The position numbers were made by a program, and so were the translations under genes. A stretch of DNA of 64,000 nucleotides, taken from NCBI GenBank assembly GCA_041650835.1, contig JBAZKL010000004.1, positions 294,900 through 358,899 of the forward strand, read 5' to 3'. The DNA comes from Candidatus Omnitrophota bacterium. GTDB taxonomy: Bacteria > Omnitrophota > Gorgyraeia > Gygaellales > Profunditerraquicolaceae. Shown here in pieces: positions 10,326 to 42,876 of this stretch (position 1 is the first letter of the stretch; each line of letters begins with the position of its first letter). Below the pieces are notes generated by a model. The model saw only the letters and a program-made list of their open reading frames with translations. It was not told the DNA's origin and made no database searches.

Positions 10326-10430
10326 AAAAGGAAGGTTAAAATATCAATTTTAAAATTTAACCTTAGAACTTAATCCTTCCTTCGATATTTACCTGCCTGC
10401 CGACAGGCAGGAACTCTATCCTTTGCTGTT
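10326..10430. repeat. Nested-palindrome intergenic element, copy A (variant arrangement)
   Basis: AAAAGGAAGG...CCTTCCTT inverted repeat (10326-10382) encloses TTAAAAT/ATTTTAA. The GC-rich hairpin CCTGCCTGCCGACAGGCAGG (10392-10411) lies just outside it. It sits between the convergent rpmB and recJ 3' ends. Confidence 0.6.
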
Positions 10431-10459
10431 GCCTTATCTTCTGCTTCAACAAACCAGCC

Positions 10460-12151
10460 TTATTTAAAGAATATTTCTTTAATCTCAAGGAGTAATGATT
10501 CCTCACCCTGCCAATTATCCATGACAGGGCTGTATACTACATCAAAATATTCCGCGGCAAGCAAGCTGTCTTTAAAACTTCCCATGCCAAAGCCGATGGC
10601 TTGATAGGTAAATGTCCCGTCAGTGACCCAGAATTTCAACGTATCCCTGCCCATGACCCGCGGCTGCCCCTTCAGCCGGAGGTTGCCGGTAAAGAACAAG
10701 GGCTGGCGATTACCCATGCCGAAAGGCTCAAGCCGCGCAAGCTCCCCGGCCAAAGCCTCATCCATATCCGAAAGGGTCAATGCCATATCAATATCTATAC
10801 TCGGCATCAAATCAGTCATGGTTAAACGCTCATGCGCCAAAAGATTGATCTTAGTGCGGAAATCATCGATATTTTCTTTCGATAAAGAAAGCCCCGTAGC
10901 ATGCTGGTGCCCCCCGAAGTTTTCCAAAAGCTCACGGCATTCAAGAATAGCTTCAAAAAGATGGAAATTCTTAATGGACCTGCCGGAACCTTTACATAAG
11001 CCTTCAGCTAAAGAAATCAATATAGTCGGACGGTAAAAGCGTTCCGCGAGTTTCGCCGCGACAATGCCCAGAACACCGGTATGCCAACCTTCCTTCGCCA
11101 CAACCATGACTTTATGTTCCTTAAAATTAACTTCTTTATCGATAATGGCTTGCGCCTCTTCTAAAATCGTACTTTCTACTTTCTGACGTTGGCGGTTGTG
11201 TTTTTCAACAGTCTCGACAAGCCTTTGCGCCTCCGCTTGGTCCACGCTCATCAGCAGGTTTAAAGCAACCTCAGCATTATCTATACGGCCGCTGGCATTG
11301 ATACGCGGGCCAAGGATAAAACTCACGAAGCCGGGATTGATCTTTTTATTCTTGACACCGCTGGCTTCAATAAGCGTTTTAAGGCCGAGCCGTTTCGTAT
11401 TGAAAAGCTTGGAAAGGCCTTCTTTGGCAATGATACGATTCTCCCCCGTCAACGGGACCGCGTCCGCAATGGTGCCTAAAGCAACCAGGTCTAGCTCATC
11501 AACCAAGGTATCCGCGCACAGAGCCTGACAGAATTTATAGGCAACGCCCACCCCCGCCAGGTCACGATAAAGATACCCGGAATTACTTATTTTTGGATTG
11601 ATCATCGCTGAAGCATAATCATGGGTATGTTCCCCCGACGGCTCATGATGGTCAGTCACGATCACTTCAACGCCCCTATTCCGCAATTCTTTTATCTGTT
11701 CAGTACTATTAGTCCCGCAATCCGCAGTAATGACGACTTTTACCTCTTTTTCTTTAACAAGCTCAAAAACCTTCTTATTAAGCCCATAGCCTTCTTTGAC
11801 CCTGTCCGGGATATAATGGCATGTTTCTAAGCCCATCCTTGCGAACGTATTCTCAAGCAGGGTAAGCGATGTTAAACCATCAACATCATAATCGCTGAAG
11901 ATCAAAACCCTTTCCCTTCTTTTACAAGCCCCCCTGACAATACCTATCGCCTGAGGCATCTCAAGGAACGTATTCGGATCAAGCATATCGTTAAGGCTGG
12001 GATTGAGGAACTTTTCCGCGGCTCCGGGAGTTTCGATCCCGCGGTTTATCAAGAGCTGCGCGAGAACATTAGAAATCCCTAACTCCTTACTCAAGACTTC
12101 ATGCAAGGTGCGATTCGGGGAAGCTATATGTAAGATCTTACGGGTATGCAT
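10460..12151 (-). CDS. recJ: Single-stranded-DNA-specific exonuclease RecJ
   Basis: 563 aa. DHH-family motifs are present (VLIFSDYDVDG, VIVTDHHEP, GGHQHATG). Overall DHH/DHHA1 architecture. Confidence 0.9.
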   Translation of the reverse strand: MHTRKILHIASPNRTLHEVLSKELGISNVLAQLLINRGIETPGAAEKFLNPSLNDMLDPNTFLEMPQAIGIVRGACKRRERVLIFSDYDVDGLTSLTLLENTFARMGLETCHYIPDRVKEGYGLNKKVFELVKEKEVKVVITADCGTNSTEQIKELRNRGVEVIVTDHHEPSGEHTHDYASAMINPKISNSGYLYRDLAGVGVAYKFCQALCADTLVDELDLVALGTIADAVPLTGENRIIAKEGLSKLFNTKRLGLKTLIEASGVKNKKINPGFVSFILGPRINASGRIDNAEVALNLLMSVDQAEAQRLVETVEKHNRQRQKVESTILEEAQAIIDKEVNFKEHKVMVVAKEGWHTGVLGIVAAKLAERFYRPTILISLAEGLCKGSGRSIKNFHLFEAILECRELLENFGGHQHATGLSLSKENIDDFRTKINLLAHERLTMTDLMPSIDIDMALTLSDMDEALAGELARLEPFGMGNRQPLFFTGNLRLKGQPRVMGRDTLKFWVTDGTFTYQAIGFGMGSFKDSLLAAEYFDVVYSPVMDNWQGEESLLLEIKEIFFK

Positions 12152-12190
12152 AAATAGTATTATGTAAGACTACAGGTATAATTTTAAAGT

Positions 12191-12307
12191 ATAAAGTTTA
12201 AATAACAAAGGAAGGATCAAGCTTAAAGGTTTCTCCTGCAGGCAGTTAATTTTAAGATTTATTCTTTAGCCTTTAAGCTTCCTTTGCTATTTGATCTTTA
12301 AACTTTA
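12191..12307. repeat. Nested-palindrome intergenic element, copy D
   Basis: ATAAAGTTTAAATAACAAAGGAAG ... CTTCCTTTGCTATTTGATCTTTAAACTTTAT. The outer arms ATAAAGTTTAAA / TTTAAACTTTAT are perfect inverted repeats. The middle arms are AAAGGAAG / CTTCCTTT. The central segment contains CCTGCAGGCAG. It lies between the argS stop and the recJ start. Confidence 0.6.
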
Positions 12308-12318
12308 TTCTTTCTAAA

Positions 12319-40423: not shown

Positions 40424-40798
40424 TTACCCCTTACTTATTACGGGCTTTTCTTCACGAGCGGCGATCTTAGTCGCGTTCTTTCCGACCTTCGAGCGTAAAT
40501 AAAAAAGCTTGGAACGTTTTACCTTACCTCTCCTTAAGACCTCAATACGTTCGATATTGGGCGAATAGAGCGGAAAAACCCGTTCGATGCCTTCACCAAA
40601 AGAGATCTTTCTGACCGTAAAGGCTTGACGGACCCCGGCGCCTTTTTGGGCTATCACGATCCCTTCAAAAGGATGCAGCCTGACCTTGTCCCCTTCGGGG
40701 ATCTTGGTCATGACTTTCACCGTGTCGCCAACGCCGAAAACCGGCATTTCTTTCTTTGTGTATTCCTGTTCGACTTGTTTGATTTTATCCATTGTGTA
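40424..40798 (-). CDS. rplS: 50S ribosomal protein L19
   Basis: [11 protein letters not shown]...FGVGDTVKV...[14 protein letters not shown]. Start is taken at the MDKIKQ Met; the ORF track extends it upstream to 40867. Confidence 0.9.
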
Positions 40799-41507
40799 CT
40801 CCCTTCTTTTTTGTTTTAACACGAGGCAGCAGGTCAGGCCTTTTTTCTTCGGTATTCCTGAGCGCATGAAGATGCCGCCACGCCGCTATAGCTTTATGGT
40901 CTCCCGATAACAACACTTCCGGAACGCTCATCCCGGCATATCGGGCAGGCCGGGTAAAATGAGGATACTCTAATAGATTACCTTCGAATGACTCAAATTT
41001 CAAGGAATTTTTATCTCCCAGGACTCCGGGGAGCAGCCGGGTAAGGCAATCGACTAAAACCATAGCCGGTAATTCGCCTCCCGTGAGGACAAAATCGCCT
41101 ATAGAAACCTCGTCATCGACAAGACGGGCCCTCACCCGCTCATCGATCCCCTCATAGTGGCCGCAAATCAAGATAAGGTGTTTTTCTTTGGAAAGTTCTT
41201 TTGCCATTGACTGATCCAAACGCCTGCCTTGCGGCGACAAGAGGATCACGCGGGCTTTCGGCTTACGGCTTTGCGCTTTCGGTTTAAGCTGCCGGACCGC
41301 TTTAAAAATCGGTCCCGGGCACATGACCATGCCTGAGCCGCCGCCGAAAGGACGGTCATCGACTTTTTTATGCTTATCGCGCGAATACCCCCTGAGGTCA
41401 TGCACCGCGATCGTGATCTTCCCTTTCGCCTGAGCCCGTTTCAGGATCGACTCATTTAAAACAGGCTCAAACATACCCGGAAAAATAGTGATGATATCAA
41501 TTCTCAT
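40785..41507 (-). CDS. trmD: tRNA (guanine37-N1)-methyltransferase
   Basis: [13 protein letters not shown]... and the SPOUT knot motifs ([13 protein letters not shown]) are present. Start is taken at the internal Met. Confidence 0.9.
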
Positions 41508-42717
41508 AGTCACGCAGGAATTCTTTTTTGAAATCGGCAAAACAGTCGCGCGCGATCGCCTCTCTCACCCGGCGCATCGTCTCCAGATAAAAATAAACAT
41601 TATGTAAAGAAACCAGGCGTAATCCTAATATCTCCCCGGTATTAAACAAATGCCGCAGGTATGAACGGGTAAAGCCGGTACAGGTATAACAACCGCAGCG
41701 CTTATCAAGCGGGCCGAGGTCCTTAGCAAAAGCGCCGTTACGGACCGTAACTTTGCCGGCACTGGTAAAAGCGGTGCCGTTCCTGCCGTAACGGGTAGGC
41801 GCCACGCAATCAAACATATCGACGCCCCGCTCAACCGCTTCAATAATATCCGCAGGTAAACCGATCCCCATCGCGTAACGCGGCTTATCTTCAGGGAGCA
41901 GGCAAGACGTCATCGCTATAATATTATACATTAAGTTCTTAGGTTCGCCAACTGAAACTCCGCCGATAGCATAGCCGTCAAAACCGATATCAACCATCTG
42001 CGCTGCACTTTCCTTGCGCAGGTCCTCATAGGTTGCGCCTTGCACGATACCAAATAACAACTGGTTGTCGGCTGCGGCACAAAGCCGCGCACCGGCGCAA
42101 TTCCGATCTGCGCCGGGTGTGATCGGCTGCGGCACAAAGCCGCGCACCGGCGCAATTCCGATCTGCGCCGGGTGTTGCCGGTGGTCGCTCACCGCGGCCC
42201 TGGAACGGCGCGCCCAATCAGTCGTACGCTTCATCGCAGCTTCCGCATGGTCTTTCGCGCACGGATAATGCACGCATTCGTCAAGCGGCATCATAATATC
42301 CGAGCCCAGCCCTTGCTGGATGCCCACCACATCTTCAGGAGTCAAAAAATGTTTCGTTCCATCGATATGAGACTGGAATTCCACGCCCTCATCGTGCACT
42401 TTACGCAGCAGCGCTAAACTAAAGATCTGATACCCGCCGCTATCAGTCAGAATAGGCTTATTCCAGCCCATAAAACGATGCAAGCCTCCGGCATTCTTAA
42501 TAACATCCATTCCCGGGCGTAGAAATAAATGATACGCGTTTGATAACGCGATCTGCGCCTGGCAATCTGACAAATCCCGGGGAGAAAGCGTCTTAACGCT
42601 GGCCTGCGTCCCAACCACCATAAAACAAGGCGTATCAAGTGTCCCGTGGGAAGTAACTAACTTCCCTAAACGCGCGTTGCTGGTCTTATCGCGATGAAGG
42701 AGAGTAAATGCACCCAT
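41497..42717 (-). CDS. tgt: Queuine tRNA-ribosyltransferase, carrying an ~35-aa insertion encoded by a tandem DNA repeat
   Basis: 406 aa. TGT motifs are present ([19 protein letters not shown]). The zinc site is CGCYTC...H. A non-canonical segment [36 protein letters not shown] lies between the conserved WARRSR and LFGIVQG motifs. Confidence 0.88.
42069..42175. repeat. Two tandem copies of a 52-nt GC-rich unit (period 55 nt) with internal hairpins, inside the tgt coding sequence
   Basis: Copy 1 is at 42069-42120 and copy 2 at 42124-42175; the two are identical. Each unit contains the hairpins GCGGC-ACAAA-GCCGC and CCGGCGC-AATTCCGATCT-GCGCCGG. Confidence 0.9.
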
Positions 42718-42751
42718 AGTTAATGTAATTAATTTATCAGAAAGTTCAAAG

Positions 42752-42876
42752 TATAAAGGCTAAATATCAAAGGAAGATTTAAGGCCTAAGGTTCCTGCTT
42801 GTCAGCAAGCAGGTAATCTTAAAATTTTATCTTTATTCTTTAACCTTCCTTTGTTATTTAAACTTTAGCCTTTATC
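42752..42876. repeat. Nested-palindrome intergenic element, copy C
   Basis: ATAAAGGCTAAATATCAAAGGAAG ... CCTGCTTGTCAGCAAGCAGG ... CCTTCCTTTGTTATTTAAACTTTAGCCTTTAT. It lies between the pilZ-domain gene stop and the tgt start. Confidence 0.6.

Follow-up and report, generated by a model that had tools for sequence, protein, structure and literature searches.

A composite palindromic repeat family in operon spacers of an Omnitrophota bacterium and the 20-bp palindrome nested in it

Four AT-rich palindromes are located in the spacers of housekeeping genes in a 64,000-nt stretch of a Candidatus Omnitrophota metagenome-assembled genome (GCA_041650835.1, JBAZKL010000004.1, 294,900-358,899), which is termed the window hereafter. 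The question raised by this locus is whether these palindromes serve the host, for example as transcription terminators, or are copies of a mobile-like repeat. The original prediction combined both views: it described the elements as a dispersed, modular, possibly mobile family of extended bidirectional intrinsic terminators. The analysis described below suggests that the four copies are, on balance, probably a lineage-restricted, non-coding, composite palindromic repeat family, that is, selfish intergenic DNA that resembles miniature inverted-repeat transposable elements (MITEs) such as ERIC, and also BIME. The elements entered the spacers of housekeeping operons after the split from a congener that is still short-spaced at three of the four sites, and two hairpin modules nested in them, H1 and H2, have been gained or lost as exact blocks between close relatives.

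The window has a GC content of ~48%, and its minus strand carries most long open reading frames (ORFs) and all genes identified here but rpmB. Copy A is located in the spacer of the convergent rpmB/recJ pair, copy B in that from argS to recJ, copy C in that from rpmE to prfA, and copy D in that from a gene for a PilZ-domain protein to tgt.

The four copies and their parts

All four palindromes are present where they had been predicted, are related to one another and lie far beyond chance expectation. Their length is 105-197 bp, so that they are referred to as a family of ~105-200 bp. The motif CTTCCTTTG occurs five times in the window, always inside copies B, C and D, as compared to a mean of 0.75 in shuffled sequences. 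The composite pattern AAAGGAA-N12-AAGGTT-N40-60-CTTCCTTTG matches only B (+), D (+) and C (-) in the window and gives 0 matches in the shuffles, and the GC hairpin pattern matches only A, C and D in the window (0.01 in the shuffles). An nhmmer profile built on B, D and C recovers these copies with E values of 1e-35 to 1e-40 and copy A with 3e-5, and detects no fifth copy in the window, nor any copy in the 10 kb of sequence that precedes it. The pairwise identity among B, C and D is ~81%, and the three copies are aligned in register over ~125 nt. Both strands of every copy fold into long imperfect hairpins (z-scores from -2.5 to -6.3), and the ORF lists contain no ORF of at least 60 amino acids inside the elements.

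The outer inverted repeat is (A)TAAAGKYTAAA...TTTARRCTTTA(T), with arms of 36-44 nt that are 80-81% complementary. These arms are arrays of heptads, a feature that is absent from the description in the original prediction. The element consists of (NNNAAAG)x8, followed by H1, an AT spacer and (CTTTNNN)x8, in which the heptads are degenerate and number ~8 per array. The spacing of the AAG triplets is 7, 7, 14, 11 and 7 nt in the left arm of C, and 7, 7, 14, 4, 7 and 7 nt in the other five arms of copies B, C and D. The autocorrelation of arm identity peaks at lags of 7 and 14, and the peak at lag 7 is present in all arms. H1 is a 20-bp GC-rich perfect palindrome, CCTGCCTGCCGGCAGGCAGG, located off-centre next to the short AT-rich spacer. 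H2 is an optional double hairpin of 55-57 nt set in the outer arm, which in the window is present in copy C.

Copy D (42738-42876, plus strand, antisense to the genes) illustrates this architecture. It ends 35 nt before the ATG of tgt (42717) and starts 186 nt after the stop codon of the PilZ gene (43062). Its left heptad array (42738-42793, plus strand) reads CAGAAAG TTCAAAG TATAAAG GCTAAAT ATCAAAG GAAGATT TAAGGCC TAAGGTT, its H1 (42794-42813, CCTGCTTGTCAGCAAGCAGG) contains one compensated change from C-G to T-A, and its right array (42814-42876) is an imperfect inverted complement of the left one. Copy B (12185-12307, plus strand, antisense to both neighbouring genes) is located between the argS stop codon (12319) and the recJ start codon (12151). 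A central GC hairpin had been assigned to all four copies; it is found in A, C and D, but B retains only a deletion remnant at 12235-12245, CCTGCAGGCAG, in place of the full CCTGCCTGCCGACAGGCAGG seen in the orthologous copy of a relative with 96% RecJ identity. Copy C (25862-26058, minus strand, sense to the genes) overlaps the rpmE stop codon (26056-26058) and is located upstream of prfA (start at 25807). It had been placed at 25932-26058, and it is indeed present there, but it runs to ~25862, because the H2 module (25877-25931, plus strand, CCCTCGACAGAGCTCGGG + ATGAATGAACCATAAGCGCCTGAGGCATGGTTCATTC) lies inside its outer arm. H1 of copy C (25985-26004, CCTACCTGCCGGCAGGCAGG) is missing from the homologous short element of the congener (L119). 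Thus, the orientation of the elements differs, with the consensus sense to the genes in C and antisense in B and D.

Copy A (10326-10430), to which no strand is assigned, is located in the 3' region of recJ, between the recJ stop codon (10460) and the terminator shared by rpmB and recJ. It contains a rearranged heptad hairpin, AAGGAAGG...CCTTCCTT (10328-10384), and its H1 (10392-10411, CCTGCCTGCCGACAGGCAGG) lies outside this stem, so that the proposal that A is permuted holds. Between rpmB and copy A, at 10262-10322, there is a hairpin with 28-nt arms flanked by an A-run and a T-run (AAAAAGGCAAAA...TTTTGCCTTTTTTTT). This hairpin is conserved in relatives and appears to be what actually terminates the convergent rpmB and recJ transcripts in both directions.

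Orthologous sites in relatives

Relatives were ranked by means of their RecJ and Tgt homologues, which gives a ladder of RecJ identities of 100, 96, 92 and 87%. The window, W, is the reference for all identities. Relative X (RecJ 96%; loci L126 and L132) has an identity of 85-90% to W at four-fold sites, relative Y (RecJ 92%; loci L127 and L133) has 74-75%, and the congener Z (RecJ 87%; a 646-kb contig with loci L119, L129 and L135) has 58-62%.

The spacer at site A is 270 nt in W and 266 nt in X, in which the orthologous copy A (L126) is 97% identical to that of the window. It is 142 nt in Y, where other hairpin modules are present, and only 14 nt in Z. The spacer at site B is 167 nt in W, 171 nt in X, where the same element carries an intact H1, 166 nt in Y and 20 nt in Z. 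In Y, a different heptad palindrome of the GTTAGGT type lies between similar ends (AATAAAGGTTAAG...CTTAACCCTAT), and the empty 20-nt spacer is found in both L129 and L130. Site C, compared in W and Z, is 248 nt in the former and 110 nt in the latter. The shorter homologous element of Z is without 26 nt of the left arm, H1, H2 and the adjoining heptads of the outer arm, and the site is only 17 nt in one more distant relative. The spacer at site D is 344 nt in W, 395 nt in X, where the element is accompanied by a clean 57-nt insertion, 199 nt in Y and 144 nt in Z; neither Y nor Z contains the element. All four carry a conserved block of ~120 nt after the PilZ gene, and W and X have gained extra non-coding DNA, including the element, between this block and the ATG of tgt.

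The block itself, at 42940-43061 on the minus strand just past the PilZ stop codon (GGCTAGAGAAGG...TTGTATTTTAGCGATGA), is non-coding and near-invariant in W, X, Y and Z, down to 87% RecJ identity. In Z it reaches almost to the tgt ATG. This block is probably the promoter or leader of tgt, or an RNA of no assigned kind.

The 57-nt insertion of X at site D (L132) sits in the outer arm, ATAAAGGCTA[ATCCCTCGAC...GGTTCATTC]AAAGTTTAAAT. It is the hairpin pair H2 of copy C, with identical flanks at both loci, and H2 occurs again at site A of Y (L127). Module differences between close relatives are, in sum, the presence or absence of H1 at C, the presence or absence of H2 at D, and an intact or decayed H1 at B. 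The relatives show that gain is lineage-specific, that sub-modules are gained or lost block by block, and that the same spacers are used repeatedly. In the 64 kb of syntenic sequence of Z (L119, L129 and L135) no long intergenic palindromes are found, whereas W has several. The view of a dispersed, mobile-like family of MITE/REP type (REP, repetitive extragenic palindrome) is supported by the empty congener sites at A (14 nt), B (20 nt) and D (144 nt), and that of modularity by the presence or absence of H1 and H2 and by the GC hairpins that stand on their own in phage contigs and in a relative at a greater distance, as described below.

Other lineages have long intergenic palindromes of their own (L123, 1891-1979 and 11594-11686; L122, 16690-16769; L127, 7265-7346; L003, 5273-5360), which belong to Omnitrophota lineages and to a Thermoguttaceae (Planctomycetota) contig. 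Several of these palindromes have arms made of short tandem repeats, namely the GTCCGAACTTACCCC family, GTTAGGT heptads and AAGGTTC heptads. Palindromes with heptad arms may thus be frequent across this superphylum.

Several points weigh against the interpretation of the copies as a dispersed selfish family. Between W and X, spacers and elements are 93-97% conserved, as compared to 85-90% at four-fold sites, which could mean that the elements are under selection for a host function. However, this conservation does not single out the elements, because whole spacers, including the parts outside the elements, are equally conserved. No target-site duplication is definable: L129 and L135, which hold the empty sites, are too diverged for the junctions to be placed, and TTAAT at D and AT/TA at the ends are possible duplications but are indistinguishable from the inverted repeat. 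The different inner sequence between similar ends at site B of Y, the relative with 92% RecJ identity, also fits turnover in situ. Finally, there are four copies only within the ~74 kb examined, and neither the window nor ~230 kb of related loci contains a gene for a transposase or a REP-associated tyrosine transposase (RAYT).

If the copies represent such a family, the whole element would be mobilised in trans by an enzyme for which either its ends or its hairpin serve as the recognition site. The modules H1 and H2 would spread by a hairpin- or single-strand-specific mechanism that leaves no duplication, such as transposition of the REP/RAYT or IS200/IS605-type Y1 kind. The copies would be transcribed passively as 3'-untranslated, intercistronic or 5'-leader RNA, and their long hairpin would not be a dedicated terminator, although it may incidentally slow down exonucleases or reduce read-through. 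By comparison with REPs and MITEs (PMC3733652, PMC3184786), some attenuation or RNA stabilisation by these hairpins is plausible.

H1 outside the window

H1 behaves as a discrete unit of 20-22 nt that is independent of the arms. In L122, a more distant Omnitrophota relative (Rho 93% identical), it occurs alone at three sites within 17 kb, all in short spacers that lack the AAAG arms; one of the three lies inside a palindrome of ACAGAG heptads. A search of IMG/VR for the exact palindrome, with Y/R allowed at the two central positions, yields 46 sites in 39 stretches, from contigs with a GC content of 38-70%. When the central 4 nt are left free, 51 distinct sites are obtained, 40 of which have CCGG at the centre. 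A composition-matched control, (CCGT)2-N4-(ACGG)2, yields 11 sites with 11 different centres in the same database. The exact palindrome is over-represented ~270-fold relative to chance in environmental phage contigs. The sequences flanking H1 (78 half-sites) are random beyond position +/-1, where the only bias is R at -1 and Y at +1, indicating that the unit has sharp borders.

The contigs with H1 are from tailed phages, because they encode head closure, terminase, major head and tape measure proteins. Twelve sites were checked for their placement in phage contigs of lower to moderate GC content: eight lie between ORFs of at least 90 amino acids, and the other four only within doubtful or overlapping ORF calls. 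In one contig (L136), three consecutive spacers downstream of the major head gene contain (GGTGAGA)n...(TCTCACC)n palindromes with H1 between the heptads, so that their architecture is that of the window elements built with other heptads. Flanks with a period of 7 exceed the 95th percentile of the null at 13 of 49 H1 sites (2.5 expected), and the direct flanks are identical at 5/7 positions or more at 11 of 49 sites (null, 3%). A 7-bp target duplication as a rule for H1 was nevertheless rejected: such identity is enriched (11/49), yet it is absent at the tRNA-Met site described below and at most other sites. Adjacent pairs of H1 are found only in some phage contigs (L136 and L143), and GTAG stands beside H1 at just two sites of one contig.

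H1 is also found within genes. A phage tRNA-Met of 92 nt (L162, 2239-2330; IMG/VR 3300033148_008720) carries H1 as a long variable arm. When H1 is removed in silico, a canonical 72-nt tRNA-Met remains, indicating an exact 20-nt insert without duplication. Two further H1 sites lie in tRNA-like fragments (L137 at 8616 and L169 at 515), one at the position of the variable loop and the other in the D-loop. Two Tgt homologues, P0312 and P0249, contain the peptides SCLPAGRAW and PCLTGRQALP around residue 179. These peptides are in-frame translations of H1 (20 nt) and of a 21-nt variant at a hypervariable loop of Tgt, and, judged from the protein sequences, are probably intragenic in-frame insertions of H1.

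The tgt gene of the window (41497-42717, minus strand) contains two tandem GC-rich units of 55 nt in frame (42068-42177), each with a palindrome CCGGCGCA...TGCGCCGG. Owing to these units, the Tgt protein of the window has 406 residues, as compared to 374-387 in close relatives. They lie in the hypervariable loop between WARRSKAAV and QLLFGIVQG, which is different in every relative.

No H1 with up to two mismatches is present in 1.02 Mb of unrelated loci, and no exact H1 in GenBank phages. Viral scans for the AAAG-arm family and for H2 yield nothing, and a viral scan for CAAAGGAAG...CTTCCTTTG gives 29 matches against ~21 expected by chance, none of which fits the family profile. In the genome-contig collection, the strict composite pattern gives eight matches, all in unrelated taxa and at chance level, and none from the representative of this species. 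In the metagenome-contig collection, a looser pattern gives no contig of the same species among the matches listed; these matches include one recurring 77-nt sequence with at least 44 copies, which looks like the Capnocytophaga match of the genome scan. An origin of H1 as an adapter or assembly artefact was ruled out. H1 occupies orthologous sites in independent ENA, Logan, JGI and NCBI assemblies, and the orthologous copies bear substitutions and one compensated change within collinear flanks (the tRNA and syntenic genes).

A wider reading, which is offered tentatively and as a possibility rather than an expectation, is that H1 (R-CCTGCCTGCCGGCAGGCAGG-Y) is a 'nano' mobile palindrome that looks autonomous although it measures just 20-22 bp. 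It would be exchanged between tailed phages of the environment and bacteria of the Omnitrophota/PVC type, and its insertion would be block-exact and free of duplication. Operon spacers, the arms of heptad palindromes, the variable loops of tRNAs and in-frame surface loops of proteins would be the targets in which it is tolerated. The heptad arrays would be either preferred landing pads or accumulated 7-bp footprints of insertion and excision, and the 125-bp family of the window would be one lineage-specific carrier, amplified after it had captured H1. For the enzyme, a novel DNA transposase or nuclease system with specificity for hairpins would be conceivable.

Alternative explanations and known repeat systems

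The view that the elements are host-kept RNA elements, either extended and possibly bidirectional intrinsic terminators, as in the original prediction, or structures that act on the 3' end or the stability of mRNA, is an unlikely account of these copies. It is consistent with the position of A, B and C, which begin 0-30 nt past a stop codon. Copy D, in contrast, is 186 nt away from the PilZ stop codon and thus does not sit right after a stop codon, as had been predicted for each copy. The stable folds of the elements, which are ~6 kcal/mol better on the transcribed strand than on the other strand for A and C, also agree with such a role, as do the arrangement of copy C, in which H1 and then AAAUUUUAAAAUU are read in the sense direction, the conservation of the elements above four-fold sites between the window and X, and the precedent of SPRITE, a terminator-like repeat family of pneumococcus (PMC3184786). 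However, none of the four copies passes a scan for a GC stem followed by a T-run. The U-rich run that was thought to follow the stem, CUUCCUUUGUUAUUUAAACUUUAU, is the descending (3') arm of the stem itself, with no tail beyond it. H1 and the U-rich AT spacer face the sense direction in C only and the antisense direction in B and D. Copy B splits an argS-recJ pair that is spaced by 20 nt in the congener, and copy D is located in the tgt leader, between the conserved block and the tgt start, so that these two copies are upstream of recJ and tgt, respectively. Efficient termination at either of them would abolish the expression of an essential downstream gene. In addition, three of the sites lack the elements in the congener, a canonical bidirectional terminator that belongs to the rpmB/recJ pair adjoins A, and the non-element parts of the spacers are conserved as much as the elements. 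These results do not support a role of the elements as extended bidirectional intrinsic terminators. A promoter reading was rejected as well. TTGTTA-N16-TAAAAT or TATCAT points outward at one end of B and of D, but these matches are weak (9/12 positions only) and on opposite strands relative to the genes in B and D.

Equally hard to favour is the possibility that the hairpins have grown in place by local slippage of heptad arrays, with the similarity of the copies due to a shared bias or gene conversion and only H1 and H2 being mobile. The strict 7-nt periodicity of the arms, the shorter version at site C of the congener and the replacement of the heptads by those of the GTTAGGT type between similar ends at site B of Y are consistent with this possibility. 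So are the palindromes of other lineages with heptads of their own, ACAGAG in L122, GGTGAGA in phage L136 and AAGGTTC in the Thermoguttaceae contig. The short tandemly repeated repetitive (STRR) hairpins of cyanobacteria also consist of 7-bp repeats (PMC2670836), and local slippage has been proposed for them. However, B, C and D are 81% identical in register over ~125 nt and share the position of H1 as well as irregularities, which include AAATA(A/T)C, a phase shift of 4 nt at AAAGGAAG and the AT spacer. These shared features point to copying of the whole unit, and three sites are wholly empty in the congener.

It is improbable that the inverted heptad runs are cooperative sites for a small DNA-binding protein and H1 a site for a dimeric factor, with a role in chromosome organisation or regulation. 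Direct or inverted runs of 7-bp heptads are bound by ribbon-helix-helix proteins, of which omega of pSM19035 is an example. In copies B, C and D, five of the six arms are phased by exactly 7 bp and have a conserved AAAG core, which is consistent with this possibility. The perfect palindrome of H1, with its CCGG centre in 40 of 51 sites, fits recognition at the DNA level better than an RNA loop, and the elements are more conserved than four-fold sites. By contrast, the heptads are poorly conserved outside the AAG core, the elements are dispensable in the congener, there is no candidate for the binding protein, and H1 occurs in a tRNA variable loop and, apparently, within the reading frame of a protein, neither of which is a place where an operator would be expected. 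That the elements are small RNA genes or cis-regulatory RNAs of a defined family is very improbable: the folds are stable and weak promoter-like hexamers are present at some element ends, but Rfam gives no match at gathering thresholds and only chance-level matches in E-value mode, and the elements are palindromic on both strands, occur in both orientations, are absent in the congener and show only two compensated pairs among only four sequences.

The composite repeat family was then compared with known systems. MITEs have terminal inverted repeats around a short non-coding core, with a length below ~400 bp (features according to PMC3184786 and PMC3733652). The elements described here share with ERIC, Correia/NEMIS and RUP a length of ~100-200 bp, a non-coding nature, inverted-repeat ends, long stem-loops, a location in transcribed intergenic space beside genes in either orientation, presence or absence between relatives and internal indel variants. 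They have inverted ends around a short non-coding core and multiple copies that are present or absent at orthologous sites, as is required of MITEs. They differ from MITEs in that the MITE arms are a unique terminal inverted repeat plus core, whereas the arms here are heptad arrays with nested smaller palindromes.

REPs are GC-rich extragenic palindromes of 20-40 bp. H1 resembles them in that it is a 20-bp GC-rich extragenic palindrome located in operon spacers and 3' regions, and it shows one case of precise insertion without duplication. A REP is tagged by an unpaired GTAG or CGTC at one end (PMC3733652), whereas H1 has neither tag, its only flank bias being R at -1 and Y at +1. A REP family is as a rule restricted to one species or genus (PMC3733652, PMC3116915). 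In contrast, the identical 20-mer of H1 spans contigs of 38-70% GC and phages, a range far wider than usual. REPs number over 100 per genome and are associated with a RAYT gene. No such gene accompanies H1 in the window or the related loci, and H1 is present in 3-4 copies in the 74 kb examined here and in 3 copies in the 17 kb of L122. BIMEs and REPINs contain at least two REPs, alternating or inverted, joined by a defined linker; each window element has one H1, so that it is neither. REPs nested in longer palindromes are known (PMC3733652).

The heptad arms resemble the STRRs, cyanobacterial intergenic hairpins of 7-bp tandem repeats whose function is unknown (PMC2670836). An STRR is also present inside an RNase P RNA gene, according to the title of Vioque 1997, cited in PMC2858038, and SDR5 is inserted precisely into another palindrome, according to PMC4390886, which cites Elhai et al. 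2008 (Genome Res 18:1484). Tandem 7-bp repeats that form an intergenic hairpin are shared with STRRs, but the host here is not a heterocystous cyanobacterium. The combination of H1 with heptad arms mirrors the pairing of STRRs with small dispersed repeats (SDRs), in another phylum (Omnitrophota) and in phages and with unrelated sequences. Elhai et al. reportedly describe SDRs as 'very small mobile repeated elements' with modules of 21-27 nt, which are also said to be associated with heptamers.

SPRITE is a dispersed pneumococcal repeat that is similar to a Rho-independent terminator and tends to be located at the 3' ends of genes (PMC3184786), whereas the elements described here are without a U-tract after the stem and are inconsistent in their orientation to transcription. 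Rickettsia palindromic elements (RPEs) and intragenic REPs are palindromes tolerated in frame in protein genes, and also in RNA genes (PMC3733652). H1 is similarly located in the variable loop of a tRNA-Met and, as the peptides suggest, in frame in two Tgt homologues, but RPEs are 100-150 bp long and restricted to a genus, whereas H1 is 20 bp long and widely spread.

Two further sets of repeats are present in the window. Adjacent response-regulator genes at 45124-46391 and 46778-46837 share stretches of 60-158 nt with 67-80% identity at an offset of 889 nt; they are tandem paralogues in a two-component or GGDEF cluster. Inverted copies of ~165 nt at 53191-53356 and 54426-54590, which are 78-82% complementary, bracket an island of 1.07 kb (53357-54425) between a 179-residue ORF and ruvB. 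The island has a low GC content (~35%) and contains small ORFs only, for which no Pfam match is found, and Rfam gives no match to the inverted copies and the island (53191-54590) even at E = 1. This pair and its island may be a small mobile island or a pair of structured RNAs.

In the literature searched, there is no paper that joins Omnitrophota and REP elements and none that contains the H1 sequence. As far as this literature shows, heptad palindromes paired with a tiny widespread palindrome in Omnitrophota and phages are undescribed. Taken alone, the 125-bp family is ordinary, being another lineage-specific MITE/BIME-like family that swells the spacers of housekeeping operons, and annotators should not mistake its elements for terminators or small RNAs. 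The dissection of nested modules provides a series of filled and empty sites for tiny palindromes, the 20-bp H1 at site C and in the tRNA-Met and the 57-bp H2 at site D, and reveals one exact 20-mer common to genomes of 38-70% GC, phages included. These results are relevant to the spread of tiny palindromes in general, such as REPs without RAYTs, CGTC-type REPs and the cyanobacterial SDRs and STRRs. With its sharp borders, wide range and association with heptads, H1 is a good handle for finding the mobilising enzyme by phylogenetic profiling.

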